A program made the position numbers and the translations under genes. A DNA stretch of 64,000 nt from a bacterium (GTDB taxonomy: Bacteria > Patescibacteriota > Minisyncoccia > Phycocordibacterales > UBA1550), in the NCBI GenBank assembly GCA_030649835.1, contig JAUSES010000013.1:9317-73316 (forward strand), read 5' to 3'. This document shows, piece by piece, positions 7,624 to 44,864 of the stretch. Every line of letters begins with the position of its first letter. Within the stretch, counting starts at the first letter, position 1. A model generated the notes under the pieces. It was not told the DNA's origin, did no database searches, and saw nothing but the letters and a program-made list of their open reading frames with translations.

Positions 7624-10162
<2,539 letters not shown>

Positions 10163-11428: not shown

Positions 11429-12868
11429 ATGACTCTCGACATTAAACAATTAACAATCAAGCAAGCGCACGAACTCCTCATAAATAAAAAAATGAGTGTG
11501 CTTGAGCTCGCAGAGGCAATACTCAAGGTCGCAGAGGACACTCGTGACCTCAATGCGTACTTGGAAATTTTTGATGATGTAAGAGAGCAGGCTGAGGTAG
11601 CACAAAAAATGATTGATGAAGGGAAGGGAACAACGCTCACCGGTATTCCTTTTGCGATGAAAGACAATATTTTGATCAAAGGGCGCATCGCAAGCGCATC
11701 ATCAAAGATTCTTGAGAACTACACCGCAACATACGATGCGCATGTGACAAAAAAACTTCGTGATGCAGGAGTAATATTTGTGGGGAGAACCAACATGGAT
11801 GAATTTGCGATGGGTGGCTCCACAGAAAACTCTGCATTTGGAGTGACAAAAAACCCTCATGATAAAACTCGTGTACCAGGAGGGTCATCAGGTGGCTCTG
11901 CTGCGGTTGTTGCTTCAGGTTCAGCATTAGGAGCCCTCGGTACTGACACAGGTGGCTCTATTCGTCAGCCCGCAGCCTTTTGTGGAGTAGTGGGCTTGAA
12001 GCCCACGTACGGCAGTGTTTCGCGGTCGGGTCTCATCGCGATGGCGAGCTCTCTTGATCAAGCGGGACCTTTTGCAAAAACCGTGGAGGATGCGGAAATT
12101 ATTTTTGATTGTATAAAAGGTCACGACTCGATGGACAGCACGTCTTATACAGATGAGTTTATTAATATTAAAAATAAAAAACCTAAAATAATTGGCGTAC
12201 CCACAGAGTTTGTACACGCAAAGGGTGTTGACGAAAGAGTTCTTAAAAATTTTGAAGAGTCCTTGGAACAAATGAAAAATGCGGGGTATGAAATAAAAGA
12301 AATTTCTTTGCCTTCTCTTGCACACGGACTCGCCGTTTACTATATTCTGATGCCTGCTGAGGTTTCTTCAAATCTTGCACGTTTTGATGGTGTGCGATAC
12401 GGATATCATGCAGATGGACAGAACTTGCTAGAGGATTACATGCGTTCACGTGGGGAGGGGTTTGGGCGGGAGGTACGACGCAGAATTCTCCTCGGTACCT
12501 ACGTGCTCTCTGCTGGCTACTACGATTCATATTATGGTCGCGCATGCGCATTGCGTGAGATGCTCAAGAAAGATCTAGAAAAAGCATTTGGAGGTGTAGA
12601 TATTATTGCAACCCCCACAACACCTACTCCCGCATTTAAAATAGGCGAAAAATCAAATGACCCACTTCAGATGTACCTCGCGGATATTTTTACTGTACCG
12701 GTAAACATTGCGGGGGTTCCGGCGATCTCAGTTCCATCTGGTTTTATAAAAGAGGGAGACTCCATGCTTCCACTTGGTATGCAATTCATCGCGCCGCACT
12801 TTGGAGAAAGCGCACTATTTGAGGTAGGGAAAGACTTTGAAAAAGTCCAAGAATCTAATAGAATTTAA
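11429..12868 (+). CDS. gatA: Glu-tRNA(Gln) amidotransferase subunit A (amidase family).
   Basis: The amidase signature GGSSGGSAAVVASG with a Ser-cisSer-Lys triad context is present, at 479 aa. Confidence 0.9.
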   Translation: MTLDIKQLTIKQAHELLINKKMSVLELAEAILKVAEDTRDLNAYLEIFDDVREQAEVAQKMIDEGKGTTLTGIPFAMKDNILIKGRIASASSKILENYTATYDAHVTKKLRDAGVIFVGRTNMDEFAMGGSTENSAFGVTKNPHDKTRVPGGSSGGSAAVVASGSALGALGTDTGGSIRQPAAFCGVVGLKPTYGSVSRSGLIAMASSLDQAGPFAKTVEDAEIIFDCIKGHDSMDSTSYTDEFINIKNKKPKIIGVPTEFVHAKGVDERVLKNFEESLEQMKNAGYEIKEISLPSLAHGLAVYYILMPAEVSSNLARFDGVRYGYHADGQNLLEDYMRSRGEGFGREVRRRILLGTYVLSAGYYDSYYGRACALREMLKKDLEKAFGGVDIIATPTTPTPAFKIGEKSNDPLQMYLADIFTVPVNIAGVPAISVPSGFIKEGDSMLPLGMQFIAPHFGESALFEVGKDFEKVQESNRI

Positions 12869-13676: not shown

Positions 13677-13747
13677 AGCGGGGTAGAGAAGCGGTATCTC
13701 ATCAGGCTCATAACCTGAAGACGCCCGTTCGATTCGGGCCCCCGCAA
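13677..13747 (+). tRNA. Probable initiator tRNA-fMet (anticodon CAT).
   Basis: The cloverleaf was folded by hand. The anticodon loop is cUCAUAa. A11:U24 is present. Positions 1 and 72 are unpaired (A1·A72). The 3' acceptor strand CCCCGCA with an A discriminator matches the bacterial initiator tRNA as I recall it. The T-loop is TTCGATT. CCA is not encoded. Confidence 0.6.
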
Positions 13748-13812
13748 CACGAATAAAGTACTCTATCTTCGCGAACCTTGCTTATTTTAGAACAGCTGAT
13801 ATAATGGTATAT

Positions 13813-14493
13813 ATGGCTAAGTTTAAAGATAAAATAAAGGCACGTCAATTGAGAAAAAAAGGATGGAGCATAGGAGCTATTGCTGAAGAACTTGGGATTT
13901 CTAAATCATCCGCAAGTATTTGGTGCTTAGATGTTGTGTTGACGAAAAGGCAAACAAATAGACTTAAAGAAAATTCAATACGCGCTGGACATAAAGGTAG
14001 AATGATGGGGGCAGCAATGAACCACAAGAAGAAACTAGATGCAGTAGAATCCTCCAAACTAAAAGCCATTGCTCTCGTTGATCAAATGACACAAAGAGAC
14101 CTGTTTATGCTCGGGATAGGTCTTTATTGGGGGGAAGGAACGAAAAGTGAAAGGAGCGCACTTGCAGTTGTTAATTCTGACCCAGAAATTATACTCGTTA
14201 TGAAGAAGTGGTTTGAAATAATCTTCAATGTAAAAGACGAAGATTTTATGCCAAGGATATTTATAAACGAGATCCACCAACCTAGGATAAAAAAAGTTGT
14301 CGAATACTGGTCCTCCTTACTCAAATTGCCTAAGGAGCAGTTTGGAAATCAAGTATTGTTAAAAATAAAGCAAAAAAAGGTATATGAGAATTATGACTCA
14401 TATTATGGTATTCTATCGCTAAAGGTACGGAAGAGTTCTAAGTTGAAATATGAAGTACTTGGATTGATTGATGCAGTAAAAAAGAAGTATTAA
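13813..14493 (+). CDS. HTH-domain protein with a single LAGLIDADG-like motif (putative homing-endonuclease-like protein).
   Basis: N-terminal HTH (GWSIGAIAEELGISKSSASIW). The motif DLFMLGIGLYWGEGTKS resembles motif 2 (LRGLYEAEGSF) of the double-motif enzyme at 23913. The gene stops 6 nt before tRNA-Met. The listed ORF starts at 13804; the second Met at 13813 follows a TATAAT box. Confidence 0.4.
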   Translation: MAKFKDKIKARQLRKKGWSIGAIAEELGISKSSASIWCLDVVLTKRQTNRLKENSIRAGHKGRMMGAAMNHKKKLDAVESSKLKAIALVDQMTQRDLFMLGIGLYWGEGTKSERSALAVVNSDPEIILVMKKWFEIIFNVKDEDFMPRIFINEIHQPRIKKVVEYWSSLLKLPKEQFGNQVLLKIKQKKVYENYDSYYGILSLKVRKSSKLKYEVLGLIDAVKKKY

Positions 14494-14499
14494 ATTTAT

Positions 14500-14571
14500 G
14501 CCGGTGTAGTTCAATGGTCAGAACGAGGGACTCATAAGCCCTAGACAGTGGTTCGATTCCACTCATCGGCA
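14500..14571 (+). tRNA. tRNA-Met (anticodon CAT; elongator Met or lysidine-modified tRNA-Ile2).
   Basis: 7-bp acceptor stem gccggtg/catcggc with a G1:C72 pair. Anticodon loop cUCAUAa, T-loop TTCGATT, discriminator A. CCA is not encoded. Confidence 0.75.
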
Positions 14572-14575
14572 CAAA

Positions 14576-14625
14576 CAGTAGAAAGTGCGCCCTCGTGAGG
14601 GAGCACTTTCTACGGTTTGTGTCTT
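14576..14625 (+). terminator. Long hairpin following tRNA-Met (gtagaaagtgc…gcactttctac with inner ccctc/gaggg).
   Basis: Read directly. It is followed by ggtttgtg. Confidence 0.45.
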
Positions 14626-14692
14626 AGTGAATCGAACCGCGGGCCGCAGCACTCGAAGAGAGTGCGTAGGTTTCGAGCTCACCAGAGCGAGA

Positions 14693-14713
14693 GGCGATTC
14701 CACTCATCGGCAC
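14693..14713 (+). repeat. Direct repeat of the tRNA-Met 3' end (gattccactcatcggcac), about 140 bp downstream of the gene.
   Basis: 18-19 nt are identical to 14554..14572. An inverted T-arm-like fragment (gtgaatcgaacc) lies at 14627..14638. Confidence 0.75.
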
Positions 14714-14782
14714 CCGCAGTTTGTTTAGCGGACTGTTTCCTGTTAGAATGCGCAAGGGTTATTTTAGTTGAATTTATGTAAT

Positions 14783-14856
14783 GCGGTCGTAGCTCAGCTG
14801 GTTAGAGCGCCCGCCTGTCACGCGGGAGGTCGTGGGTTCAAGTCCCATCGACCGCG
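14783..14856 (+). tRNA. tRNA-Asp (anticodon GTC).
   Basis: Acceptor stem gcggtcg/cgaccgc. Anticodon loop cUGUCAc. D-loop agctcagctggttagagc. Discriminator G. Confidence 0.85.
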
Positions 14857-14857
14857 C

Positions 14858-14897
14858 AAATACAAAAGATACCTAGTGCTACTGCACTAGGTATCTT
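14858..14897 (+). terminator. Rho-independent-type terminator hairpin after tRNA-Asp.
   Basis: acaaaagatacctagtgc tac tgcactaggtatcttttgtattc. Confidence 0.6.
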
Positions 14898-15026
14898 TTG
14901 TATTCTTCCGCGTACGGGACTTGAAAGGCGGAGACATCCCGAGGCTTCTGCGAGGGAGTCGAGCCGGGGTCGAGAGTACTTAGGCTTTTTCGAGCGAAGC
15001 AAAGAAAAAGACTTAGTAACTCGTGA

Positions 15027-15055
15027 CCAAGTCCCATCGACCGCGCAAATACAAA
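15027..15055 (+). repeat. Exact 29-nt direct repeat of the tRNA-Asp 3' end plus trailer (caagtcccatcgaccgcgcaaatacaaaa).
   Basis: Identical to 14839..14867. It is followed by a second, different terminator hairpin (15052..15091, aaaatgagtccaacgc…gtgttggactcatttt). Confidence 0.85.
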
Positions 15056-15143
15056 ATGAGTCCAACGCAGAAGTGTTGGACTCATTTTGTTTAATGATTG
15101 AAAGAATGAGCTAAATAGTGTATTGTGTCGTGGTGTTGAATAA

Positions 15144-15170
15144 GCCGATGTAGCTGTTTTGGTAGGCAAG
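15144..15170 (+). repeat. Truncated 5' pseudo-copy of tRNA-Thr(GGT) (gccgatgtagctg…ggtagg), about 65 bp upstream of the intact gene.
   Basis: Compared by eye with 15211 onward. The same taag upstream context is present. Confidence 0.55.
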
Positions 15171-15210
15171 CAGGGGTACTGCGATAGTCTATATCTTGAA
15201 AATAATATAA

Positions 15211-15286
15211 GCCGATGTAGCTCAGTTGGTAGAGTGCGTCCTTGGTAAGGACGAGGTCTCCGGTTCAATCCCGGACATCGGCTCCA
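15211..15286 (+). tRNA. tRNA-Thr (anticodon GGT).
   Basis: Acceptor stem gccgatg/catcggc. Anticodon stem cgtcc/ggacg with loop tUGGUAa. T-loop TTCAATC. Discriminator T. CCA is encoded. Confidence 0.85.
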
Positions 15287-15324
15287 GTAAATAATTGACA
15301 TACAGTCAGTTATTTATTTTGTGC

Positions 15325-15345
15325 GCCGATGTCTGGGATTGAACC
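15325..15345 (-). repeat. Inverted copy of the tRNA-Thr(GGT) T-arm/acceptor 3' end.
   Basis: gccgatgtctgggattgaacc is the reverse complement of ggttcaatcccggacatcggc, with 1 mismatch. Confidence 0.75.
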
Positions 15346-15440
15346 AAGAAAGGGGTCGGGAAACGGGAGTTTCCTGTGGAGGAAAATGTTAGAAACCGTG
15401 GGTTTCTAAAGCGGGGTGAGCCTGCGAGCGAGCAGTGATC

Positions 15441-15458
15441 TCCCGGACATCGGCTCCA
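15441..15458 (+). repeat. Direct repeat of the tRNA-Thr(GGT) 3' end (tcccggacatcggctcca), about 170 bp downstream of the gene.
   Basis: Identical to 15269..15286, including the CCA. Confidence 0.75.
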
Positions 15459-15553
15459 TGATAGTTGAAAGCCTGTAAAGTCCTTAAGGTCAAAAAGTGA
15501 ATGCATTTTTGCAATCACTTTTGACTTTACACTTTGGACTTTTGACTGTTTGT

Positions 15554-15629
15554 GCCGACCTAGCTCAACTGGTAGAGCAACGGTATCGTAAACCGTAGGT
15601 TCCGGGTTCAATTCCCGGGGTTGGCTCCA
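15554..15629 (+). tRNA. tRNA-Thr (anticodon CGT).
   Basis: Acceptor stem gccgacc/ggttggc. Anticodon stem acggt/accgt with loop aUCGUAa. T-loop TTCAATT. CCA is encoded. Confidence 0.85.
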
Positions 15630-21866: not shown

Positions 21867-22409
21867 ATGAAAAATAAAATCATTATCTCTATAATTATTA
21901 TCGCACTTGCTTCACTTGCTATCGCGTGGAAATTTATGGACAACAAGCCCGCTGTCGTCGTGACGACTTTTGAGGAATGTGTAGCAAGCGGTGCTCCCGT
22001 GATGGAGAGCTACCCAGCCCAGTGTCGCTCAGGCGGGAAAACATTTGTTGAAAATATTGGTAACGAGCTCGTGAAAGCCAACCTCATTCGCATATCTAGT
22101 CCTCGGCCAAATGAAGCGATCACCAGTCCGCTTGTTGTGCGTGGCGAGGCACGCGGTAACTGGTTTTTTGAGGCGAGCTTTCCGGTAGTGCTTACCAACT
22201 GGGATGGGCTCATTGTTGCGCAGGGTATTGCACAGGCAAAAGGCGAATGGATGACCACAGATTTTGTGCCATTTGAAGCGACGCTCACATTTGTCGTTGA
22301 TAAAAATGTATACAGCACACGAGGGGCACTGATTCTCAAGAAAGACAATCCATCTGGACTTCCCGAACATGACGATGCGCTCGAGATTCCCATAGTGTTC
22401 CAGAAATAG
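21867..22409 (+). CDS. Hypothetical secreted protein (possible Gmad2/GerM-like Ig-fold domain).
   Basis: N-terminal TM MKNKIIISIIIIALASLAIA. The Gmad2 suggestion is weak and made from memory. Confidence 0.35.
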   Translation: MKNKIIISIIIIALASLAIAWKFMDNKPAVVVTTFEECVASGAPVMESYPAQCRSGGKTFVENIGNELVKANLIRISSPRPNEAITSPLVVRGEARGNWFFEASFPVVLTNWDGLIVAQGIAQAKGEWMTTDFVPFEATLTFVVDKNVYSTRGALILKKDNPSGLPEHDDALEIPIVFQK

Positions 22410-22423
22410 TTATGAAAAAACTT

Positions 22424-22900
22424 CAAAACAATTATGCGTTTATAGATAGCCAAAATGTAAATTTGAGTATTCAGTCAATTGGATGAAGACTTGACTTCGC
22501 TCGTTTTCGAATATATCTTGCAGAAAAATATGGTGTCACGAAAGCGTTCCTATTTGTTGGTTATATCGAAGGAAACAATGATCTCTATATCGCGTTGCAA
22601 GGAATGGGGTATCTTTGTGTTTTCAAACCGACACTAACATACAAAGATGGCACAACAAAAGGGAACTGCGACGCAGAACTTGTTTTGCAGGCAATGATCG
22701 AATATGAAAACTATGACGCAACAGTTATTGTTACGGGGGATGGTGATTTCTATTGCCTTGTGAAATATCTATTAGAGAAAAATAAATTAAAAAGAGTTTT
22801 AGTTCCCAATATTTTAAAATACTCTGCACTCCTTAAAAGATTTGGAGGTAAACACCTTAGTTTTATGAATAACTTAAGGACTCTCTTGGAGCGTAAATAA
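22424..22900 (+). pseudogene. NYN/LabA-like domain gene interrupted by an in-frame TGA (at 22484..22486) at a position where Trp is expected.
   Basis: In a single frame the sequence reads MKKLQNNYAFIDSQNVNLSIQSIG*RLDFARFRIYLAEKYG…TGDGDFYCLV. The TGDGDF motif is typical of the NYN domain. TGA is a genuine stop elsewhere in the window. Confidence 0.55.
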
Positions 22901-22945
22901 AAAGTCCCCCGTAGGGACAGAACCCTACGGGGGACTTTTCGTGGT
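22901..22945 (+). terminator. Strong Rho-independent-type terminator hairpin.
   Basis: aaaagtcccccgtaggg acagaa ccctacgggggactttt. Confidence 0.7.
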
Positions 22946-23017
22946 GATTAAGTATAGTCTAGCAATTCTCTTATTTTTGTCAAGCATTAATTTCTTCTAT
23001 ATAATTACATAATAATC

Positions 23018-23905
23018 ATGCCTGATAAATATACAGCAGTCTGGGTGTCGCATTCTTCGATGGGGGACTTTATCAAGTGCCCGCGTTCATATTACCTGCA
23101 CAATATGTACAAGGACCCGAAGACTGGGCACAAGGTGTCGCTTGTCACCCCCCATATGTCACTAGGTATTGCGGTGCACGAGGTGCTCGAGGGGCTCGCG
23201 GAGTTTCCTTCTGAGTCGCGGATGGGCCATGACCTACTTGCAATCTATGAAAAAGAGTGGAAAAAAGTGACCGGCAAGAAAGGCGGATTTTTAAACGATA
23301 CTGAAGAAGCGGAGTTTAAAGCACGTGGCGTAGTGATGCTCAAAAAAGTTGTTGAAGACCCACGTTTTCTCGTAAACAAATGTATCAAGCTTCCACAAGA
23401 CAAAATGCCCTGCAACTTTTATTTGAGTGAGGAGCACAATATTATTTTAAATGGCCTCGTGGATTGGATAGAGTACTTGCCCGAGACCGACTCACTTCAT
23501 CTGGTGGATTTCAAAACAGGAAAAGTAGAGGAAAAAGAAAGCTCGCTTCAGCTTCCAATTTATCTCCTCCTCTGTGATGCGCTTCATAAAAAAAGAAAAG
23601 TCATCAAAGCAAGCTACTGGTATTTGGAGAGCGATAAGCTTGTTGAAAAGAAATTGCCTGACATTGATACTGCGCGCCGTGATGTGCTTGCCGCAGCGGT
23701 AAAGGTAAAGGACGCGCGCGACATTGCAAAAAGAGAAGGTGTAGAAAAAGCATTTGTTTGTCCACAAGGAGTGTATAATCCTCAAACCAAAGAAGGCGGA
23801 TGCATGTCTTGCCGCCCATATGAATTTATTTTGAACAGTGACTCGAGGGTGGAGTTTGTTGGGGTGGGGGGGTTTAGTCAGGATATGTACGTGTTGATAA
23901 GATAA
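23018..23905 (+). CDS. PD-(D/E)XK nuclease of the Cas4/RecB/AddB type with a four-Cys cluster.
   Basis: One N-terminal Cys (IKCPRSY) plus three C-terminal Cys (CPQG…CMSCRPYEF). Motifs DWIEY…VDFKTGK (D/E-K) and QLPIYLL (QhxxY). A TTGTCA-N17-TATAAT promoter is upstream. There is no CRISPR context. Confidence 0.55.
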   Translation: MPDKYTAVWVSHSSMGDFIKCPRSYYLHNMYKDPKTGHKVSLVTPHMSLGIAVHEVLEGLAEFPSESRMGHDLLAIYEKEWKKVTGKKGGFLNDTEEAEFKARGVVMLKKVVEDPRFLVNKCIKLPQDKMPCNFYLSEEHNIILNGLVDWIEYLPETDSLHLVDFKTGKVEEKESSLQLPIYLLLCDALHKKRKVIKASYWYLESDKLVEKKLPDIDTARRDVLAAAVKVKDARDIAKREGVEKAFVCPQGVYNPQTKEGGCMSCRPYEFILNSDSRVEFVGVGGFSQDMYVLIR

Positions 23906-23912
23906 GCCTTTT

Positions 23913-24707
23913 TTGCTAGTATCCATGAATATTGGGAAGGTTACTGAAGGTAGCCAATTTTTTGCGAGATCGTCTAATGGTCAACAAATATGCTATAATT
24001 CTTTTATGCCAAGCAATTGGAATAAAGGAGAGACCAAAACTACAAACCTTTCTGTAAGGAAGATTTCGGATACGATGAGGTTGAGGAAGATTGATAATTT
24101 TAAAATATGGAGAGACGGGATGAAGATGGAGGGGAAGGTTAAGTCAGAGTATCCGCAACTTGAGAAAAACGGAGACCTAGCAGAACTTATTGGTGTTGTT
24201 CTTGGTGATGGGCACATTTGTGTGTACCCTCGATGCGAGGAACTGCGACTGATATCAAATTCAAATAGCCCAGGGTTTATCAAAAGGTATGCAAAAATTA
24301 TGGAGCAGGTATTTAGCAAGAAGCCATATGTCATCTCGAGCGGTCAATCCAACTCTACCAAGATTGGTTTTTATGAAAAATTCATAAGTAAAAGGCTCGG
24401 TGTTCCAACTGGATCACGAAAAGACCTCGAAATTAAGGTCCCCAAATGGATTTCAAAAAATAGGGAATACGTGGTAAGGTATCTTCGTGGTTTATATGAG
24501 GCAGAAGGGAGTTTCTGTGTTCACGAGCCGACATATACCCACAAGTTCCTTTTCGCGAATAGAAACGAGTCGATGCTCAATAATGTTTATGAGTTAATGC
24601 AGGGTCTGGGTTTCCACCCACATAGAAGCAAAGACCAGATTCAAATTTCAAAAAAAGAAGAGGTGTATGGGGCGATGAAAGTATTAGGGTTTAGGGACTA
24701 CAAGTAA
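23913..24707 (+). CDS. Double-motif LAGLIDADG homing endonuclease (free-standing).
   Basis: LAELIGVVLGDGH (motif 1) and YLRGLYEAEGSF (motif 2). The stop lies 5 nt before tRNA-Gln. The real start may be the in-frame Met at 24006. Confidence 0.75.
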   Translation: MLVSMNIGKVTEGSQFFARSSNGQQICYNSFMPSNWNKGETKTTNLSVRKISDTMRLRKIDNFKIWRDGMKMEGKVKSEYPQLEKNGDLAELIGVVLGDGHICVYPRCEELRLISNSNSPGFIKRYAKIMEQVFSKKPYVISSGQSNSTKIGFYEKFISKRLGVPTGSRKDLEIKVPKWISKNREYVVRYLRGLYEAEGSFCVHEPTYTHKFLFANRNESMLNNVYELMQGLGFHPHRSKDQIQISKKEEVYGAMKVLGFRDYK

Positions 24708-24712
24708 ATATT

Positions 24713-24781
24713 GCGGGTTGGTGTAATGGTAGCACGTCGCCCTCTGGAGGCGAAAATTGGGGTTCGAGCCCCTGACCCGCA
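24713..24781 (+). tRNA. tRNA-Gln (anticodon CTG).
   Basis: Acceptor stem gcgggtt/gacccgc. Anticodon stem tcgcc/ggcga with loop cUCUGga. T-loop TTCGAGC. Discriminator A. The exact ends are uncertain by ±2 nt. Confidence 0.7.
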
Positions 24782-24833
24782 GCTAAGTTGAGCTAAGTAT
24801 TGAAGCCCTAGACGCAACAGAATCAACAATATT

Positions 24834-25286
24834 ATGCTAAAAGTAATAGTTAAAGAAACAGACGGTAGAGGTAAAGGTGTTTTTGCAACTGAACAAATTA
24901 AAGCTGGCGAACTCATCTTTGACTGGACAGGAGGGCCTATTTACGAAGCAGAAAATGCTATGGATTTAGAAAAGGATATTCGAGATTACGCAATTCAATT
25001 TGAAGAGCACAAATGGATAGACACAGATGGTCTTGGAAGATTCTTAAATCATTCCTGTTTTCCTAATGCGGGAGTTCGAGGCTTATTCCAAATAATTATC
25101 ACTCGAGATATTAACCCAGGAGAGGAGATATTGTGGGATTACGATATGACAGAAAATAGTAATTGGGTTATGGAGGAGTGCAAATGTGGATCCGAGCGTT
25201 GTCGTAAGTTAATTCATGGGTATAGATTTCTGCCGAACGAGCTAAAGAAAGAGTATCAAAATTACATTTCCGATTGGTTAAAATAG
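24834..25286 (+). CDS. SET-domain protein (putative protein-lysine methyltransferase).
   Basis: Canonical SET motifs NHSCFPNAG and ELIFDW, a Tyr-containing EEILWDYD, and a post-SET Cys cluster CKCGSERCRK. Confidence 0.7.
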   Translation: MLKVIVKETDGRGKGVFATEQIKAGELIFDWTGGPIYEAENAMDLEKDIRDYAIQFEEHKWIDTDGLGRFLNHSCFPNAGVRGLFQIIITRDINPGEEILWDYDMTENSNWVMEECKCGSERCRKLIHGYRFLPNELKKEYQNYISDWLK

Positions 25287-25287
25287 T

Positions 25288-25656
25288 ATGTCCGAGGAGC
25301 TTCTCTTTCCAGTCCAGTTATCTTTTAAGAAAAGCTTGTGGGGTAAAGGGATAGAAAAGCACGAGTCTGGTTTGGTCAGCTCGTGGTACTATATAAATAT
25401 GGAAAAGGAACAAATCATTAGAATTGTAGGGTGGTCCACAGTAGTTCTTGTTATTCCGATACTTGGGCAGTTGTTTGTGGACGGGTGGAATTGGGGAGTG
25501 GGTGATTTTGTCTTTGCTTGGGTATTTTTTAATGTTCTTGGGATCACGTATACATTCGTGAATAACAAAATTACGCATCGGGGAGGTAGAATTGCGGCAA
25601 GTATAATCGTGGTCGCAATTTTTGTGTTTGTTTGGGTTCTCCTCGCTACCGGGTAA
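25288..25656 (+). CDS. Hypothetical small membrane protein.
   Basis: Hydrophobic ORF with three predicted TM helices. Confidence 0.3.
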   Translation: MSEELLFPVQLSFKKSLWGKGIEKHESGLVSSWYYINMEKEQIIRIVGWSTVVLVIPILGQLFVDGWNWGVGDFVFAWVFFNVLGITYTFVNNKITHRGGRIAASIIVVAIFVFVWVLLATG

Positions 25657-25710
25657 AAATTTGCTTGTGTCCCCAGACTCGTAGTTCGTAAAATTTGATA
25701 AAATTATAAT

Positions 25711-25926
25711 ATGTATTTCAAATCAAAAAAGATTTCATTAGTAATTTTGGGCATCACAGCTCTCATATGCTCAAGGATACTGTTTGCATTGTTCAATGAT
25801 CCTGAGGGTCCGAATTTACTGATAGTTACCGTGATGGCCCTCTTCATATATTTTTTGTCCTTAACGGTATATTCATTCGACACCAGAGTCACTGCAATAG
25901 GGGGTCAGGAGTCTTTAATAGAATAG
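25711..25926 (+). CDS. Hypothetical small membrane protein.
   Basis: 71 aa with two TM helices. Confidence 0.3.
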   Translation: MYFKSKKISLVILGITALICSRILFALFNDPEGPNLLIVTVMALFIYFLSLTVYSFDTRVTAIGGQESLIE

Positions 25927-25982
25927 GTGATGGTTCACTAGTTCACACGGCTACTAACTTATGTAGTATACTTTAGCTATTA

Positions 25983-26264
25983 TTGGTTAACCATTATTTT
26001 ATGCTAAATACACACAAAGTTGGGTTAGTGTTCGGGACAGTTTTTGGAGGAGCGCATGTTCTTTGGGCACTATTTGTTCTTCTAGGCTGGGCTCAGCCAA
26101 TTGTTGATTTTGTTTTTTGGGCTCATATGATGGAGTTTCCACCTATGGTGGCGCCATTTGATTTAATAGCATCGGCAGCACTTATCGTTATCGCCTCAAT
26201 CATCGGCTACATCGCGGGATACGTCGCTTCAAGCGTATGGAACAAAATCCACTCAGTAGCGTAG
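25983..26264 (+). CDS. Hypothetical small membrane protein.
   Basis: 93 aa with three TM helices. Confidence 0.3.
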   Translation: MVNHYFMLNTHKVGLVFGTVFGGAHVLWALFVLLGWAQPIVDFVFWAHMMEFPPMVAPFDLIASAALIVIASIIGYIAGYVASSVWNKIHSVA

Positions 26265-26414
26265 TATTGCAGAACATATGAATAAAAAATAGTGAATTCA
26301 CCCGCCCAAACTTTTAGAAAATATTTGTTTTTAAAATATGCTAATAGAAGTACAGTTTAATTATCAAATTAAAGGACCACTTACTTTCTAAAAGTTAGGT
26401 GGGTAAATAAAACA

Positions 26415-26801
26415 ATGCCAACCACAGACGCAGAATGGGAAGAGAAGCTTTCGCCTGAACAATACCGTGTTCTCCGCAAGAAGGGGACAGAAGCACCTTT
26501 TTCAGGAAAGCTTCTTCACACAGATGCGGAAGGTGTGTATCGCTGTGCGGCATGTGATAACCCCCTCTTTTCCTCGGATACAAAGTTTGATTCAGGCACC
26601 GGATGGCCAAGTTTTGATGAGGCACTTCCCGGAGCGGTGCGTCTTGAGACCGACACCACGCTCGGGCTGGAACGCACCGAAACCCTCTGCGCAAAATGTG
26701 GTTCCCACTTGGGGCACCTTTTTAACGACGGGCCTACCAAAACAGGCAAGAGATATTGTATGAACTCGGTGTGTCTCGATCTCGAAGAGAAAAAGAAGTA
26801 A
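26415..26801 (+). CDS. msrB: Peptide-methionine (R)-S-oxide reductase MsrB.
   Basis: Two CxxC zinc motifs (CAACDNPLF…CAKCGSHLGH) and the catalytic RYCMNS. Confidence 0.85.
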   Translation: MPTTDAEWEEKLSPEQYRVLRKKGTEAPFSGKLLHTDAEGVYRCAACDNPLFSSDTKFDSGTGWPSFDEALPGAVRLETDTTLGLERTETLCAKCGSHLGHLFNDGPTKTGKRYCMNSVCLDLEEKKK

Positions 26802-28925: not shown

Positions 28926-31900
28926 ATGTTAGATAATAATGATGTGGAAAATGTAAGGCAGGCCCCACATTTTTGGAGCAACCTTAGTAATCGCAATTTT
29001 TTATTCATTATCGGTACCGTCCTTGTTCTGCTTATTGGAGGGATTTTTTATAATTCAGTTGTTTATAGAACCGAGATATCGGAATATGATCTCAAGGCAA
29101 GTGTTGCTGACGCCGCTGGTATTGCACCAAACAGTCATTTTATTTTAAAAACAACAGCTCCGCTAACCACCCAAGTACTTGAAAGGTATATCAAAATAAT
29201 TCCGGCGATTGATTTAAGTATTAAGAAAGTATCAGCACAGGAAAATACATTTGAAATTATTCCTAAAGATGAACTTCAGCCAAATCAAATTTACACCATT
29301 CAGGTAGACAAGGGCCCCTTAGCGAGCCGTGATTTCAGTTGGGCATATCAAGTAAAAGCACTGTTTCAGGTAACATCTTCAATCCCGGGAGATAGAGGCG
29401 TGGATGCTCCTACAAATACAGGGATTGAATTCTACTTTAATCGCGACAATATCATTGCTCCCGATAATTTTATTGAAATAACTCCTGCGGTGTCGGGTAA
29501 GTTTGATGTATCTGAAAATAGAGTTCGGTTTATTCCTAGTAGTCCTTTAGCCGAAAGAACTATTTATACGATAAAAATAAAAGCGGGGCTAAAAGCTAAA
29601 GACACGGATGATGTTTTGAGTAGCGAGAAAATAATTCAATTTCAGACAGCCCAAGCCTATTCCGATAATCGCGGGCCTTCAGCATATTTCTCTCGTCAAT
29701 TTGCTGAATTTAAACCGGGTTCGGATATTCTTTTAGGTGTAGGTGCTTATAACACTTCTTCAGTTGGTGCAACTGTCTACCGGTTTGATTCAGCTCAAGA
29801 ATTTCTTGATTCTGTAACAAAAATTCAAGGCAACACGCCATGGGCTCGTTACTATACAAATATCGATAATCAACTGCCAGAAAATAAAAAAGTGTTTACT
29901 GGTAACCTTCCTCTTGAGACCGCTGACTACTATTCACTGGTGAGAATGCCTCAAGCATTGCAGACTGGATACTATGCGATAGTTATTAACTCGGGTAAAA
30001 GCAAAGATATCTCATGGTTTCAAGTAAACCCAGTGGCTAGTTTTGCGGCGTTTGCGAGTTCAAAATCTTTGGTGTGGTTAAAAGACATTGCTGGTGAAAA
30101 AAGTGTCACAGGAGTTCCTATCCTCTTTAATAATAAACAGATCGGGCAATCTGGCGCGGATGGAGTGGCTCTCTTTGGTACACCCTCAGAACTTATAAGA
30201 AAACCGACTGATTCTTATTATACAAATGAACGAAAATTCTTCATTGCACAGGCCCCTACTGGTGCTCTGGTTATCCCAATGGAAAGTGAATATGGTTACG
30301 CAACTTCTCTCACTCAAAATGATAGCTGGTGGGACTATATTTCACTTAATAAAAATATGTATCTACCGACCGATACACTCCGCTTCTGGGCAATAGAGAA
30401 ACCTCGTAATAGTGGAGCGGCTGGCGAAGAAATCAGCGCTAAGCTTACTAACCCATACTGGAGTGAGACTCAGGACAATGTCGTAACATACGCTGAAACA
30501 AAATTAAAACTTTCCGAATATAATGCTGTTACTGGTGAACTATCGTTTGCCAATCTAAAACCGGGCACATACGACCTAACTTTCCTAAAAGGAAGTGAGG
30601 CTGTTGCAAAACAGACAGTTACCGTAAGTGCATATATAAAACCAGCTTATAAAATTACTGCTACCCCTGATAAGAATACGCTCTTCGCGGGCGATACTGT
30701 GACATTCAAAGTCAAAGCAGAATTTTTTGATGGAACACCCGTTACGAACACTTCGCTTTCTTATTCTGCTTATGGAGCTTTAGGCAAAAATTCCCAAGGC
30801 AGTATAAACCTTAGTTCTCAAGGAGAAGGATCATTTACTGTCACCCCTGAATATACAAACGATCAAACATACTGGCCATCTTACTTAAGTGTTAATGTGA
30901 AACCAACGAAAGCCGAGGAGGGGCAAATAGAAACAAATTCTTCAGTATTTGTATTTGGACCGCATATAAATAATTCAATTAGCCAAAAACAATCAGCCTC
31001 AAACGTAACCTTTGCGGTAAAAACACGCGCAGTTGTTCCCAATAATAATTCTCGAGGGGAACCTTATTGGAATACCGAGAATTACTTGGGTGGCCCCGTG
31101 GTTGGTGCAACAACAAACGTTGATACATCAGAAGTTGTGTATCTCAAAAACCAAACAGGGACTGGTTATGATCCGATAAATAAATTGACCTACCCAATTT
31201 ATAATTATCGAACAGAATATCGCTTCATTTCATCTCAAGCAATAACCGCCGATCAAAACGGTTCTGCGGAATTTCTCTTTACGCCTGAAAACAAAAAAAC
31301 GTATAAATTTATTTTTACGACATACGATAATGTAGGGCGGGCAGTCAAAGACACTCGGTATGTTTATGGTGGCTTGGGGGATGTTGACTATGGTTCAGAA
31401 GACTCCTCCTACTACCTCTTTAATCCAGACAATAACAAGAACTACAAAGTTGGTGATTCAATAAATATCCAGCTACAGACTTATCAGGGAATCATGCCAC
31501 CTGAAGGAACGGGGAACTATATATTTATGACTGTAAATAACGGAGCTATTGAGTATCGGATTCAGGATGCTCCCAAATATAATGCAACATTCCAGAATAA
31601 GGACATTCCGAATATAGGTATTTGGCCGGGATGGTTTGCTGGTGGCCGTTTCCACAACTCGTATCTTCAAAATATTTCTTTTGACGCCAATGAGCGAAGA
31701 TTGAATATAGCAATTACTAAAGATAAGCAGACATATAAGCCAGGGGATAATGTTAGCCTTGATATCAGAGTAACGGATAAAAATAATAATCCAGTTAAAG
31801 CAGAGGTAAATCTTTCTGCCCTGGACGAAGCTGTATTCTCAATTAGACCAGATGAAAAAGATATTATTAACGATCTCTATAAAGATATCTACTCGCAGGT

Positions 31901-33818
31901 TGTAATTCGCACATCAAACATGCCTCCTTATGGTGGCGGTGGTGCTGAAAAAGGTGGGGGTGGAGATGATGCACCTCGCTCAAATATTCAAGAAATGGCA
32001 ATATTTAAATCTGTCACGACAGACGCTGGAGGATTCGCGCATACTGAATTTAAACTTCCTGACAATATAACCTCGTGGCGCTTAACAAGTCAGGCTGTTA
32101 CCAAGGATTTGTTTGCTGGCAAAGACGTGTCCTTCATACCGGTCACCCTACCATTCTTTGTAGATGTGACATTGAATAATACGTATCTTGCAGCTGACCA
32201 GCTCACCCTTCGGTTAAGAACATTCGGAACAGCGACCACCCAAGGAACTGCAAGCTATACAGTAGAAAGCCCTACTCTGCCGTTCAAAAAGATTGATAAA
32301 GCCGGTGGAAACAACATTGATATACCGCTTGGAGTACTGCCCCTTGGAAGTCACCAACTTACCGTGAGAGCAAGTAGTGGCGGATTTTCAGATGCACTAA
32401 CACGACCACTGAACGTTCTCGATAGTTATTTTACAAAAAATACTTCGAACTTTTATGAGGGCATTGGTGGACTGAAAATTAAAAATAATGCTCTAGGTCA
32501 CACTACGCTTACTTTCATCTCGCACGGTAGAGGGCAGTTATATAAAGAGCTTAAATCTTTGAGTTATCAGTGGGGGGTTAGACTTGATCAAAAAGGCACA
32601 CAGCTGATTGCAACAAATCTTCTCAACAACTATTTTGGAGAGAAGAATGAAAAACCAGAATTTCAGGCCGTTAAATATCAAGCTTACTCAGGAGGCTTAC
32701 AGTTACTGCCTTACAGCAGTGATGATCTCGAATTGTCGGCAATTTCTGCTCACCTCTTTGAGGACTCTGTCTTTGATCGATCCTCGCTCAAGAATTATTT
32801 ATCCCAATCATTAAGTGATGCCAAGTCGGATACATCAAGAATAACTCGTGCTTTGTATGGACTAACTGCATTCAAAGAACCAGTACTTACTAAAATTCAA
32901 AAAATTAAAAGTGACCGATCGCTGACGCTTAAGGATAAAGTGTTTGTTGCTCTTGCTCTTGATTCAATCGGAGCAAAAGAAGAAGCGCGTGCTTATTACA
33001 GGCAAACCATAAAGCCCTCAGTTCAAGTCAAATCGTCCTATGCTTACGTTGGTGGACTTAAGGGTGATGACACTATTACCACAACAGCCTTAGTCTCTGC
33101 TCTTACTGCCAGTCTTGAAGAACCAGAATCTGCTCAGCTTGCGTTATATATAAATCAAGATTTCCCCAAGGAAACTCTGAATAATTTCCAGCAACTTCTC
33201 TACATAAAATCTGCACTACCCAAGCTTAGTCCCGAAGAAGTCAGGTTTGCTTATAAGGTTGGATCAAAGAATGAAAATAAAACACTGAAAAATGGTGAGT
33301 CATTCACACTCACACTTTCACCGCAGGAGCTGACATCTTTGGAGCTCTCTGATGTCAAAGGCAAACTAGGTATGGTTGCTTCTTACGAACTAGTGTCTGT
33401 ACCCGAATCAATTTCTAAAGATAAAAATTTGTCACTAAGTCGTTCTTACGAAGTAAATGGCGGTGCCACAAAAGAATTCAATGAAGGAGATTCTGTATTG
33501 GTACGGTTAAATCCTCGATTTAGTGGAAACGCACTCAATGGTTCCTATCAAATTGTTGATTACCTACCAAGCGGACTGCGTCCAATAGATCAAGAATTGG
33601 GCAGATACCATAGCAACTATGATTTACGAGTTGATCCAACAGAAATTAATGATCAAAAGATAACATTCGTAATAGATAAAAATGTAAATCTGCCTGTCTA
33701 CTATTACGCTCGGGTAGTCTCAAAAGGTACTTATAAAGCTGAGCCAGCCATCTTACAGTCACTCCGAAGTTTCGAGAGTGTAACGATATCAAATGAAGAT
33801 ACAATTACCGTTAAATAA
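28926..33818 (+). CDS. Alpha-2-macroglobulin-family (MG-domain) large secreted/membrane-anchored protein without a recognisable thioester motif.
   Basis: 1630 aa with an N-terminal TM helix, repeated MG/Ig-like beta domains, and an A2M-like core (DNITSWRLTSQAV…LPFFVDVTLN, compare DTITEW…QPFFVEL). No CxEQ thioester motif was found by eye. Confidence 0.55.
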   Translation: MLDNNDVENVRQAPHFWSNLSNRNFLFIIGTVLVLLIGGIFYNSVVYRTEISEYDLKASVADAAGIAPNSHFILKTTAPLTTQVLERYIKIIPAIDLSIKKVSAQENTFEIIPKDELQPNQIYTIQVDKGPLASRDFSWAYQVKALFQVTSSIPGDRGVDAPTNTGIEFYFNRDNIIAPDNFIEITPAVSGKFDVSENRVRFIPSSPLAERTIYTIKIKAGLKAKDTDDVLSSEKIIQFQTAQAYSDNRGPSAYFSRQFAEFKPGSDILLGVGAYNTSSVGATVYRFDSAQEFLDSVTKIQGNTPWARYYTNIDNQLPENKKVFTGNLPLETADYYSLVRMPQALQTGYYAIVINSGKSKDISWFQVNPVASFAAFASSKSLVWLKDIAGEKSVTGVPILFNNKQIGQSGADGVALFGTPSELIRKPTDSYYTNERKFFIAQAPTGALVIPMESEYGYATSLTQNDSWWDYISLNKNMYLPTDTLRFWAIEKPRNSGAAGEEISAKLTNPYWSETQDNVVTYAETKLKLSEYNAVTGELSFANLKPGTYDLTFLKGSEAVAKQTVTVSAYIKPAYKITATPDKNTLFAGDTVTFKVKAEFFDGTPVTNTSLSYSAYGALGKNSQGSINLSSQGEGSFTVTPEYTNDQTYWPSYLSVNVKPTKAEEGQIETNSSVFVFGPHINNSISQKQSASNVTFAVKTRAVVPNNNSRGEPYWNTENYLGGPVVGATTNVDTSEVVYLKNQTGTGYDPINKLTYPIYNYRTEYRFISSQAITADQNGSAEFLFTPENKKTYKFIFTTYDNVGRAVKDTRYVYGGLGDVDYGSEDSSYYLFNPDNNKNYKVGDSINIQLQTYQGIMPPEGTGNYIFMTVNNGAIEYRIQDAPKYNATFQNKDIPNIGIWPGWFAGGRFHNSYLQNISFDANERRLNIAITKDKQTYKPGDNVSLDIRVTDKNNNPVKAEVNLSALDEAVFSIRPDEKDIINDLYKDIYSQVVIRTSNMPPYGGGGAEKGGGGDDAPRSNIQEMAIFKSVTTDAGGFAHTEFKLPDNITSWRLTSQAVTKDLFAGKDVSFIPVTLPFFVDVTLNNTYLAADQLTLRLRTFGTATTQGTASYTVESPTLPFKKIDKAGGNNIDIPLGVLPLGSHQLTVRASSGGFSDALTRPLNVLDSYFTKNTSNFYEGIGGLKIKNNALGHTTLTFISHGRGQLYKELKSLSYQWGVRLDQKGTQLIATNLLNNYFGEKNEKPEFQAVKYQAYSGGLQLLPYSSDDLELSAISAHLFEDSVFDRSSLKNYLSQSLSDAKSDTSRITRALYGLTAFKEPVLTKIQKIKSDRSLTLKDKVFVALALDSIGAKEEARAYYRQTIKPSVQVKSSYAYVGGLKGDDTITTTALVSALTASLEEPESAQLALYINQDFPKETLNNFQQLLYIKSALPKLSPEEVRFAYKVGSKNENKTLKNGESFTLTLSPQELTSLELSDVKGKLGMVASYELVSVPESISKDKNLSLSRSYEVNGGATKEFNEGDSVLVRLNPRFSGNALNGSYQIVDYLPSGLRPIDQELGRYHSNYDLRVDPTEINDQKITFVIDKNVNLPVYYYARVVSKGTYKAEPAILQSLRSFESVTISNEDTITVK

Positions 33819-36882: not shown

Positions 36883-36918
36883 TGCTAAAATAACCATAAT
36901 GATTCGGAACGTTATGCG
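36883..36918 (+). repeat. 36-nt repeat, copy 2, spanning the cyoA promoter and start codon.
   Basis: tgctaaaataaccataATGattcggaacgttatgcg. The cyoA protein begins MIRNVMR. Confidence 0.8.
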
Positions 36919-37795
36919 GGGGATATTGGTAATTGCTATTTTGGGACTGGCAACATTTTTATGGGTCTATATGAGTACGCACAATATGGGCGTCTTTAAT
37001 CCTAAGGGGGTTATTGCGCTTGCGGAAAAAGATTTGATTGTTACCACGACACTCCTCATGCTCATTGTGGTCATTCCAGTGTTCGTGCTACTTGCAGCGT
37101 TCATTTGGAGATACAGGGCAACGAACACAAAAGCAACATACACTCCCGACTGGAGCGGGAGTAAGATTTTGGAAACAATCTGGTGGGCTATTCCCACGGC
37201 AATTATTATTGCACTCGGAATCATTACATGGAAAAGCACGCATGCGCTTAACCCGTACACGCCCCTTGTTTCAAATGTTCCGCCGATTACCATTGAGGTC
37301 GTAGCGCTAGACTGGAAGTGGCTTTTTATTTACCCAGAGCAAAATATTGCTACGGTAAATTTTGTGCAGTTTCCCGTGGGGACACCGGTCAATTTTAAAA
37401 TTACGGGTGATGCGCCCATGAATTCATTTTGGATTCCCCAGCTTGGAGGACAAATATATGCGATGGCTGGAATGAACACAAAGCTTCACTTAATGGCTAG
37501 TGAAGCGGGGGAGTACGCCGGGCTCTCGGCCAACTACAGTGGTGCGGGATTTTCTGGAATGAAGTTTACGGCAAAGGCGAGCACGCAGGAAGAGTTTGAC
37601 GCGTGGGTAGAGACAGTGCGTCAATCGCCAATTACTCTAAGTCTCAGTGAATACGATGAGCTTGCACAAAAAAGCCGAAATAATCCAGTAACGTATTATT
37701 CATCTGCCGAAGAAAATTTGTATGGTAAAATAATAATGAAATACATGGAACCAAGAGGAATTTTACCACCAGCTATGCACGAAATGACAAGATAA
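36899..37795 (+). CDS. cyoA: Cytochrome bo3 ubiquinol oxidase subunit II.
   Basis: Two N-terminal TM helices plus a cupredoxin-like domain lacking the CuA ligands. Long stretches (WKWLFIYPEQNIATVNF…MNSFWIPQLGGQIYAMAGMNTKLHL…YSGAGFSGMKF) resemble E. coli CyoA as I recall it from memory. Confidence 0.8.
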   Translation: MIRNVMRGILVIAILGLATFLWVYMSTHNMGVFNPKGVIALAEKDLIVTTTLLMLIVVIPVFVLLAAFIWRYRATNTKATYTPDWSGSKILETIWWAIPTAIIIALGIITWKSTHALNPYTPLVSNVPPITIEVVALDWKWLFIYPEQNIATVNFVQFPVGTPVNFKITGDAPMNSFWIPQLGGQIYAMAGMNTKLHLMASEAGEYAGLSANYSGAGFSGMKFTAKASTQEEFDAWVETVRQSPITLSLSEYDELAQKSRNNPVTYYSSAEENLYGKIIMKYMEPRGILPPAMHEMTR

Positions 37796-37842
37796 TTTTT
37801 TGCTTACGGTATTTAGTGTTTTGATATATAATTCATGAGTAT

Positions 37843-40719: not shown

Positions 40720-40720
40720 T

Positions 40721-41800: not shown

Positions 41801-41814
41801 TATAATTAGAAATT

Positions 41815-42852: not shown

Positions 42853-42901
42853 TTTATAAAAATTTCTTGAATTTTTACTGCCGTGATAACATTAAGTAAA
42901 T

Positions 42902-44863: not shown

Positions 44864-44864
44864 T

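Follow-up and report, generated by a model that had tools for sequence, protein, structure and literature searches.

The window analysed here is a stretch of 64,000 nucleotides (64 kb) from a Yonathbacteria-like genome of the Paceibacteria. It contains a free-standing gene for a LAGLIDADG endonuclease, which stands between a 5' stub of a tRNA-Gln gene and a complete tRNA-Gln(CTG) gene. An earlier note on this DNA had listed the endonuclease gene and the tRNA separately among the members of an accessory islet; the link between them, a single unit that also includes a tRNA stub upstream of the gene, was absent from it. The parts of the unit and the promoter-like site ahead of it are as follows.

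23894-23922, forward strand: promoter-like TTGATA-N17-TAGTAT with TG before the -10 element, overlapping the end of the upstream nuclease gene
23963-23981, forward strand: tRNA-Gln stub, nucleotides 1-19 (5' strand of the acceptor stem and most of the D-arm), TGCGAGATCGTCTAATGGT
23991-23999, forward strand: extended -10 box TGcTATAAT, 6 nucleotides before the ATG
24006-24707, forward strand: free-standing double-motif LAGLIDADG endonuclease gene, 233 amino acids (Pfam LAGLIDADG_3, 25.1 bits against a cut-off of 22.5)
24712-24783, forward strand: complete tRNA-Gln(CTG), allele 'A' (ARAGORN; Rfam, 57.9 bits)

Stub, endonuclease gene and tRNA-Gln

The window was compared with related loci, which are cited below by numbers beginning with L. 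A search with the nuclease encoded upstream of the unit gave 63 loci from GTDB genomes, all of them Patescibacteria of the Paceibacteria type, and the closest ones (80–85% nuclease identity) carry the labels Yonathbacteria or Nomurabacteria. L001 is an independently assembled Logan contig that duplicates the window. A metagenome scan with the alignment of the LAGLIDADG family gave 80 further loci.

In the four contexts fetched by exact protein look-up, the stop codon of the endonuclease gene lies 4–6 nucleotides (nt) ahead of tRNA-Gln(CTG). The tRNA follows the gene on the same strand, at a distance of -15 to +12 nt (mostly 2–6), in all 84 loci that have at least 72 nt of downstream sequence; the five loci without the tRNA end too early to show one. 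On the other side of the gene, the stub TGCGAGATCGTCTAATGGT occurs once in the window, with 0 occurrences expected by chance. It is identical at 19 of 19 positions to the start of tRNA-Gln in eight relatives that lack the endonuclease gene, and among the fetched loci this 19-mer is otherwise found only in these eight tRNA starts and in L001. Across the family, 50 of 73 unique loci have the stub TCGTCTAATGGTAGGA, with up to three mismatches, 33–55 nt upstream of the endonuclease gene; in the Yonathbacteria-like subclade, the stub is shorter. About nine more loci carry TCGTCTAATGGTAGGA before an open reading frame (ORF) that is extended at the N-terminus. An N-terminal extension of 63 codons is found in a subgroup of the family (L118, L119, L123, L126, L130, L136, L150), with the stub about 46 nt before the extended start.

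Nearly every locus has the same upstream layout: (TGCxxGx)TCGTCTAATGGTAGGA, an A-rich spacer, TGnTATAAT and the ATG 6–7 nt further on. Since the -10 box of the window stands only 6 nt before the ATG, and TGnTATAAT keeps the same distance in most related loci, the endonuclease transcript should be leaderless or nearly so. The layout of the element is fixed, and consists of the tRNA-Gln 5' stub, TGnTATAAT, the leaderless ORF, 2–6 nt and the complete tRNA-Gln(CTG). A homolog of the more distal promoter-like site, TTGAAA-N17-TACTAT, immediately precedes tRNA-Gln in L002, L007 and L052. Judging by this position, the site at 23894-23922 is probably the original promoter of tRNA-Gln.

The true start of the endonuclease gene is the ATG at 24006 and not the TTG at 23913, as indicated by more than 100 homologs of 232–233 amino acids (aa). 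In total, more than 1,000 homologs with 58–87% identity have this constant length. The protein carries an N-terminal helical extension with the motif W-x-K-G-x-T-K. The motifs LGD68G and YEAE167G, which contain the catalytic acidic residues D68 and E167, show no variation among 24 sequences of 58–100% identity. For the AlphaFold2 (AF2) model, with a predicted local distance difference test (pLDDT) score of 87.9, Foldseek found I-DmoI as the closest structure; I-Tsp061I, intein endonuclease domains and I-AniI were also matched (E about 1e-8 to 1e-7), and WhiA was among the structural neighbours. The protein is thus predicted by the model to have the pseudo-dimeric alpha-beta-beta-alpha-beta-beta-alpha fold. 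No homolog was found in 50,697 phage genomes.

An Rfam search at E-values of up to 1 found only the tRNA in 22000-26500 and no group I intron or ribozyme around the gene. The non-coding flanks of the ORF are only about 25 nt and about 4 nt long. An intron-encoded endonuclease was rejected, because no ribozyme was detected and there is no room for one beside the ORF.

Several related loci have additional features near the unit. In L072 (5433-10436; L073 is the same), the LAGLIDADG–tRNA-Gln pair has an IS200-type Y1 transposase gene directly ahead of it, and genes for a Dam-like methyltransferase and a serine recombinase directly after it. Since these genes flank the pair, the tRNA-Gln neighbourhood appears to attract other mobile DNA. 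L011 has a fragment of the tRNA-Gln anticodon arm (CCCTCTGGAGGATGT, about 11843-11858) some 25 nt downstream of the complete tRNA-Gln, which may be a trace of an earlier recombination. The palindrome TACATAGGGTAACCCTATGTA is located just upstream of the nuclease gene in L002 (about 9960-9990) and twice upstream of the LAGLIDADG gene in L074 (about 410-470). Possibly, these genomes carry it as a small dispersed repeat.

Two kinds of tRNA-Gln and the proposed function of the unit

The stubs keep the D-arm CGTCTAATGGTAGGAC, which is the common, ordinary D-arm of tRNA-Gln. Of the 11 Paceibacteria loci without the endonuclease gene, 9 have this D-arm, and so do 31 phage tRNA clusters. The latter came from a scan of viral contigs for the common D-arm, which gave mostly phage tRNA clusters and one further endonuclease-free Paceibacteria-like locus, L182. 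Among the distinct endonuclease-linked tRNAs, it is present in 0 of 69, against 9 of 11 of the free ones (Fisher 2e-10, uncorrected for phylogeny). The L003 allele of the tRNA-Gln(CTG) with the common D-arm reads TGCGAGATCGTCTAATGGTAGGACATCGCC... The common D-stem is CGTC/GGAC, and allele 'A' of the window has GGTG/GCAC at this place. The D-stem variants of the linked tRNAs are compensatory (GGTG/GCAC, CATC/GGAT, CTGC/GGCA, CTTC/GGAA and CGGC/GGCC).

Allele 'A' is 75% identical to allele 'B', which most relatives have, and it is allele 'B' that the stub matches. At the same time, allele 'A' is 97% identical to the endonuclease-linked tRNA of a distant host, L088, in which PyrG is 61% and the LAGLIDADG protein 64% identical to those of the window. 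The identity of tRNA-Gln(CTG) within the class ranges from 58 to 97%; the cloverleaf is kept, and 16 of 21 pairs show compensatory double changes. As for presence and absence among related genomes, the endonuclease gene is found in the window, L065 and L074–L077 and is absent from 10 congeneric loci that retain tRNA-Gln. We propose that the common and the linked tRNA-Gln may be a target and an immune allele, respectively.

The unit is best read as an active homing element that would target tRNA-Gln and carry an immune tRNA. We give this reading a probability of about 55–60%. The enzyme would cut tRNA-Gln(CTG) genes that have the common D-arm CGTCTAATGGTAGGAC, near the junction of the D-arm and the anticodon stem. 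The break would be repaired from the element-bearing copy, with homology provided on the left by the stub and on the right by the tRNA body. The segment copied in would comprise the leader, the ORF, the short spacer and nucleotides 1 to about 23 of the immune tRNA allele, and the product would be the observed layout of stub, ORF and complete tRNA. Compensatory changes in the D-stem would keep the tRNA of the element functional yet uncuttable. This tRNA would be transcribed at the 3' end of the leaderless endonuclease mRNA and released by RNase P. Candidate Phyla Radiation (CPR) cells are thought to take up DNA, and such uptake would bring donor and recipient alleles together.

A number of observations weigh against the homing element. 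The endonuclease-free comparison includes only 11 loci, and 10 of these belong to a single genus-level group. A target that consisted of the D-arm alone would also expose any tRNA-Gln(UUG) genes that share this D-arm. The ratio of nonsynonymous to synonymous substitution rates (dN/dS) of the LAGLIDADG gene is 0.04–0.15, dS is saturated even in the closest pair, and there are no indels over 233 codons. The identity of LAGLIDADG proteins to the window copy tracks that of PyrG (78/78, 66/67, 60/63 and 57/59%, respectively), and no decayed copies were seen among the loci compared. The D-arm part of the stub, which abuts the -10 box, remains conserved also in loci with a decayed acceptor part. The gene looks long-lived and vertically inherited, and this pattern of conservation agrees no less well with a standing function than with a classic homing cycle of gain, decay and loss.

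Such a standing function is a serious rival of homing, or a complement to it, and autoregulation through the stub is one candidate. In this case, the LAGLIDADG protein would have been domesticated and would serve the host in a permanent tie to tRNA-Gln(CTG), as a regulator that binds DNA or in some other role. By binding the conserved D-arm-like stub beside its own promoter, it would control the transcript of the ORF and the tRNA; the stub would then act as an operator and no longer as a scar used in homing. Strong long-term purifying selection with constant length, the parallel divergence of PyrG and the persistence of the D-arm part of the stub next to the -10 box all agree with domestication, as do the neighbourhood after prfB-ftsEX-(pyrG), which the gene keeps across the whole class, and the presence of WhiA among the structural neighbours. 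There is also a precedent, I-TevI, a homing endonuclease that represses its own promoter. However, D68 and E167 are invariant, whereas WhiA has lost the catalytic acidic residues of LAGLIDADG enzymes. Moreover, the gene is missing from the 10 close relatives that retain the tRNA, and the linked tRNAs avoid the D-arm sequence of the stub, which a pure regulator would not need. Regulation and homing are also not mutually exclusive. We consider domestication less likely than homing.

Tentatively, we also put forward the possibility of a natural "cleave-and-rescue" system. Here, the nuclease would destroy the standard tRNA-Gln(CTG) gene and would be permanently coupled to a recoded, cleavage-proof copy, with the stub doubling as the operator of the leaderless promoter. 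If true, this would make one tRNA evolve at an unusual speed, by compensatory changes, throughout a bacterial class and would explain the long and strong purifying selection on a selfish endonuclease.

Enzymes of the I-DmoI type are encoded in archaeal rRNA introns. The window protein shares with these monomeric LAGLIDADG enzymes the double-motif single-chain fold, both catalytic acids and the association with a conserved RNA gene, here that of a CPR bacterium. LAGLIDADG ORFs in rRNA insertions of CPR bacteria have been described, with no mention of tRNA (PMC11270868). In contrast to the I-DmoI type, the window gene is not part of an intron or an excised insertion and has no ribozyme. It lies between a stub and a complete copy of its target, so that no RNA splicing is needed, and its proposed target is a tRNA instead of rRNA.

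SegB of phage T4 is a free-standing GIY-YIG homing endonuclease in a tRNA gene cluster. Like the window gene, it is a free-standing endonuclease gene next to tRNA genes, and each of the two is believed to take the adjoining tRNA DNA along when it spreads through double-strand-break repair, the carrier's own site being protected by sequence differences. However, SegB is a phage GIY-YIG enzyme, whereas the LAGLIDADG enzyme is encoded in a cellular chromosome, and its family has a fixed junction of 2–6 nt to one tRNA and a duplicated 5' stub in more than 80 divergent loci. Homing endonucleases of group I introns are also associated with bacterial (cyanobacterial) tRNA genes, for example, I-Ssp6803I in tRNA-fMet. 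There, self-splicing keeps the tRNA functional, whereas here a whole replacement tRNA is carried. Integrative elements that insert into tRNA genes restore the tRNA end, and a resistant copy is also supplied by synthetic cleave-and-rescue (ClvR) gene drives. The likeness is that a needed gene is disrupted or cut and a functional resistant copy is brought along. The window unit differs from integrative elements in having no integrase or att repeats and in duplicating the 5' end of the tRNA, not the 3' end; the comparison with ClvR is conceptual only.

Our literature searches gave no account of a free-standing LAGLIDADG gene with a tRNA stub on one side and a complete variant tRNA on the other, although our coverage of the literature was incomplete, and this is only absence of evidence. 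The LAGLIDADG–tRNA-Gln arrangement appears to be previously undescribed, and the rest of the region appears ordinary. Homing endonucleases usually rely on introns or inteins to spare the invaded gene, or sit between phage genes. The free-standing chromosomal LAGLIDADG gene appears to spare its host gene in another way, by duplication of the tRNA 5' end and by a complete variant tRNA. This arrangement is associated with an extreme, structure-preserving divergence of tRNA-Gln(CTG). If the proposed cleavage specificity is true, the unit would be a natural nuclease coupled to a resistant rescue copy and would account for the allelic dimorphism of the tRNA within the genus. The enzymes would also form a new family, specific for sites of roughly 20 bp, for which a candidate target is known, and the gene would be a "selfish" one at a housekeeping level of conservation.

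The backbone of the region and its Fe-S nuclease

The genes and signals around the unit are the following.

21867-22409, forward strand: Gmad2-domain gene (Pfam Gmad2, 1.9e-11), part of the backbone and left edge of the NYN insertion
22412-22900, forward strand: NYN (LabA-like) gene (Pfam NYN, 31.3 bits against a cut-off of 24.2, on its downstream part)
22900-22939, no strand assigned: hairpin with a flanking A-run and T-run (17-bp stem, -33.1 kcal/mol, z = -6.35, 0 of 200 shuffles as stable)
22977-23005, forward strand: promoter-like TTGTCA-N17-TATAAT (11 of 12 matches), at the right end of the NYN cassette and facing the nuclease gene
23018-23905, forward strand: stand-alone Fe-S PD-(D/E)XK nuclease of the Cas4/AddB/AdnA family (PF12705; PDDEXK_1, 6e-19), 295 aa
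24834-25286, forward strand: minimal SET-domain protein (PF00856, 3.2e-15, 56.9 bits against a cut-off of 22.4)
25288-26264, forward strand: three small ORFs of 122, 71 and 93 aa, apparently for membrane proteins, between SET and msrB, with no counterpart in relatives
26415-26801: backbone gene msrB, the first gene after the tRNA that is shared with relatives

The order prfB-ftsE-ftsX-pyrG-(Gmad2)-nuclease is kept in 11 of the 11 closest Yonathbacteria-like loci. The nuclease gene is followed by tRNA-Gln(CTG), with a gap of 34–861 nt, in 10 of 10 relatives whose contig is long enough, and in L002 msrB comes directly after the tRNA. Because the gene order is constant in the 11 closest loci, the nuclease and tRNA-Gln belong to the backbone. 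The interval is a mosaic of the vertically inherited Paceibacteria backbone prfB-ftsE-ftsX-pyrG-Gmad2-[Fe-S nuclease]-tRNA-Gln(CTG)-msrB and three independent insertions: the NYN cassette in the gap between Gmad2 and the nuclease gene, the LAGLIDADG element in the tRNA-Gln gene, and SET with the three small ORFs after the tRNA. These accessory pieces have three different insertion points and unrelated distributions. We are highly confident in this anatomy.

In the earlier note, the region was described as a single horizontally acquired defence or effector patch. All the features that it listed are present and pass their family thresholds (NYN, the four-cysteine PD-(D/E)XK nuclease, LAGLIDADG, tRNA-Gln(CTG), SET, the hairpin and the promoter-like site), and its domain assignments are correct according to Pfam, ARAGORN, Rfam and the ORF listing, with small corrections of coordinates. 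As to the accessory nature of the genes, NYN, LAGLIDADG and SET are indeed variable, but the nuclease and tRNA-Gln are syntenic backbone. One island of four genes integrated at a tRNA gene could be suggested by the nucleic-acid- or protein-modifying domains that they encode, by the hypervariable stretch after the tRNA and by the patchy distribution of SET, which suggests horizontal transfer. The best structural match of the nuclease is ACE1, a partner of prokaryotic Argonaute (pAgo), and PADLOC gave matches to Cas4 (5e-7), DruK (7e-6), HEC-09 (1.5e-3) and Aga Cas4-like. However, these are weak single-protein matches that do not form a complete defence system, and a scan of the region with NCBIfam defence models gave only weak matches. 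The window has no array resembling clustered regularly interspaced short palindromic repeats (CRISPR), no integrase among its ORFs and no repeat of the tRNA-Gln 3' end with up to three mismatches. The GC content is 0.41–0.44 over the region, without deviation from the window-wide range of about 0.37–0.54. No pAgo gene is nearby, and the phylogenetic distribution differs gene by gene. The order ftsE-ftsX-pyrG-(Gmad2)-nuclease-tRNA-Gln, which is common to Yonathbacteria-like genomes, with the three separate insertion points, argues against an islet. In its central parts, the islet fails the refuting condition that the note itself had set. The island is already largely refuted by synteny, and we regard it as very improbable.

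The nuclease belongs to the Fe-S PD-(D/E)XK family of the Cas4/AddB/RecB type by its motifs, its 1+3 cysteine arrangement and its fold. Residues C21, C248, C262, C265, D149, D164-x-K166 and Q178-x3-Y182 are invariant over 17 homologs with identity down to 43%, which bears out the cysteine arrangement first noticed in the sequence. The assignments to PD-(D/E)XK and SET are above the hidden Markov model thresholds, whereas those to Cas4 are not: PF01930 gave 15.9 bits (cut-off 22.7) and TIGR04328 gave 18.3 (cut-off 70). A total of 3,415 homologs with 50–85% identity are spread across Paceibacteria. With the AF2 model (pLDDT 87.6), Foldseek placed the pAgo-associated Cas4-family protein ACE1 closest, with a template modelling (TM) score of 0.64–0.70; after it came AdnA, Dna2, AddB/AddA and RecB with their nuclease domains, and Cas4 after these. 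ACE1 is also the top match among PDB sequences.

The context of the gene points to repair. Outside the Yonathbacteria-like group, 26 of 51 loci encode a protein of 875–1135 aa upstream of the nuclease and on the same strand. It is AddA-like, with UvrD helicase domains and a C-terminal PD-(D/E)XK domain without a Cys cluster. In L027, L033 and L061, its gene directly adjoins that of the nuclease; elsewhere, the gene of a 104-aa protein often lies between the two. In nine other loci, a Pif1-like helicase adjoins the nuclease (for example, L042, with 47% identity to the window homolog). The nuclease lacks the large N-terminal inactive helicase-like region of AddB and consists of the nuclease domain only. 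The arrangement has the logic of AddA plus AddB, with AddB cut down to its Fe-S nuclease domain. Since the gene follows that of an AddA-like helicase-nuclease in the 26 loci of other lineages, we consider it rather probable that the protein is a repair enzyme that would work with the AddA-like helicase in recombinational end processing. Against this, the AddA-like gene is absent from the 64-kb window and is not beside the nuclease in the Yonathbacteria-like loci. Hudaiberdiev et al. (PMC5704561) noted solo Cas4-like genes in CPR bacteria as well as unfused operons of UvrD and Cas4-like genes that resemble repair, so this part of our analysis is not new. The Cas4-like nuclease of Paceibacteria has the look of a stripped-down repair enzyme of the AddB type, which corrects its over-reading as a defence gene.

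The protein could also be a defence nuclease directed against mobile genetic elements, as a solo Cas4 or an ACE1-like enzyme, and not a repair enzyme. ACE1 is its top match by both structure and PDB sequence, and solo Cas4-like genes of CPR bacteria have been discussed in defence contexts (PMC5704561). Yet the same source sees the unfused UvrD and Cas4-like operons as repair-like, and high conservation (50–85% identity) over Paceibacteria in a stable housekeeping neighbourhood, with repeated AddA-like or Pif1-like helicase neighbours, does not suit a defence gene. Nor were cas genes or pAgo seen beside the nuclease, either among the scanned neighbour ORFs of the window or in the 63 related loci, which agrees with the lack of a CRISPR context stated before; restriction-modification genes are likewise missing. 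We consider a defence role quite improbable.

With the "iron-staple" nucleases AddAB/AdnAB, ACE1 and Cas4, the window protein shares the RecB-type motifs, the 1+3 Cys cluster and the structure. Its family is also linked in operons to a UvrD-type helicase-nuclease in many relatives, as in AddAB/AdnAB. It differs from AddB in its length of only 295 aa, without the large helicase-like body, from Cas4 and ACE1 in having no CRISPR or pAgo partner, and from AddAB in that the window gene is not adjacent to a helicase gene. The Cys spacing is C-x13-C-x2-C, whereas C-x2-C-x5-C is usual in Fe-S nucleases.

The small protein mentioned above, "K2" (104–106 aa, no Pfam match), accompanies the nuclease in two gene orders. 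It is encoded at L003:10900-11220, L008:10973-11290 and L010:10889-11200, and between the AddA-like and nuclease genes in about 15 loci (e.g., L014 and L047). The window does not have it; the LAGLIDADG element fills the corresponding spacer there. At 56717-58387, the window encodes a Pif1/RecD-like helicase with a C-terminal HTH_40 domain, a homolog of the nuclease neighbour in the nine loci with a Pif1-like gene.

NYN cassette, SET gene and other variable DNA

The NYN ORF has a single in-frame TGA at 22484-22486 (codon 25) and no frameshift, and there is no intact NYN ORF. The start at 22424 that had been given earlier is in frame yet lies 12 nt inside the ORF. In four homologs, the position of the TGA is occupied by the Trp of a conserved "LGW", which corresponds to a change of TGG to TGA, and the same stop is present in the independently assembled Logan contig. 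This single nonsense codon inactivates the gene. An alternative genetic code was rejected: table 11 gives long ORFs, such as the 553-aa pyrG, and the homologs have Trp at this position.

The NYN gene is missing from this slot in 10 of 11 close relatives; L008 has an intact NYN gene with 41–42% identity. Elsewhere, intact NYN genes adjoin the nuclease or tRNA-Gln (L123:6828-7307, L045:1006-1500 and L008:8572-9060, 40–58% identity to the window copy), and an NYN gene is also found beside the locus in L039. NYN may be a recurrent visitor at the locus and not a one-off insertion. The strong terminator predicted after the gene corresponds to the stable hairpin, now placed at 22900-22939, which resembles a bidirectional intrinsic terminator closing off the cassette. 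The TTGTCA-N17-TATAAT site in front of the nuclease gene, also predicted earlier, is the best of 13 promoter-like sites in 5 kb; since 11.4 sites are expected by chance, the site alone is weak evidence. The spacer that bears it is absent from relatives without the NYN cassette. The Gmad2 gene lies 5–30 nt ahead of the nuclease gene in L003, L004, L005, L010 and L011. Because Gmad2 abuts the nuclease gene in L003, L004 and L010, the segment 22410-23010 with NYN, the terminator and the promoter-like site is an insertion.

SET and the three small ORFs occupy 24784-26414. The SET protein has the NHSC and WDY motifs and a C-x-C-x4-C tail, and is a probable lysine methyltransferase of accessory nature. 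Only 48 homologs were found, in DPANN archaea (Nano- and Pacearchaeota), CPR bacteria (Curtissbacteria) and Verrucomicrobia, in unrelated contexts; the neighbourhoods in three other contigs had no shared context and no link to tRNA-Gln. Its SET domain, NHSC and Y motifs and Cys-rich post-SET tail are those of small prokaryotic SET methyltransferases of archaea and bacteria, including the LegAS4 type of Legionella, and there is a weak NCBIfam match to AnkI/LegAS4. In contrast to LegAS4-type effectors, the protein lacks a secretion signal, ankyrin repeats and any further traits of effectors, and its homologs are mostly from DPANN archaea and CPR bacteria.

Between tRNA-Gln and the conserved oxidase block, relatives hold 0.1–6 kb of unrelated genes. 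In the window, the oxidase (cox) block begins only at 36881 and runs to about 48285-48297. The 12-kb variable stretch from tRNA-Gln to the oxidase operon includes, at 28926-33818, a gene for a 1630-aa alpha-2-macroglobulin-like protein (Big_5, A2M_BRD, A2M, bMG10). The block itself (about 36899-48297) is a haem-copper oxidase operon in a CPR genome, with COX2-, COX1- and COX3-like and UbiA-family genes. Its cox2 and cox1 genes are split by a 5-kb insert (37843-42852) that encodes a 958-aa NHL/Big/C39-like protein, a 359-aa protein and a PDZ protein; in L002, cox2 and cox1 are neighbours without this insert. At the other end of the region, five tRNA genes (Met, Met, Asp, Thr, Thr) lie upstream of prfB at 13677-15629. 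This cluster is kept in Yonathbacteria-like relatives, and its Met/Met/Asp part is inverted in L002.

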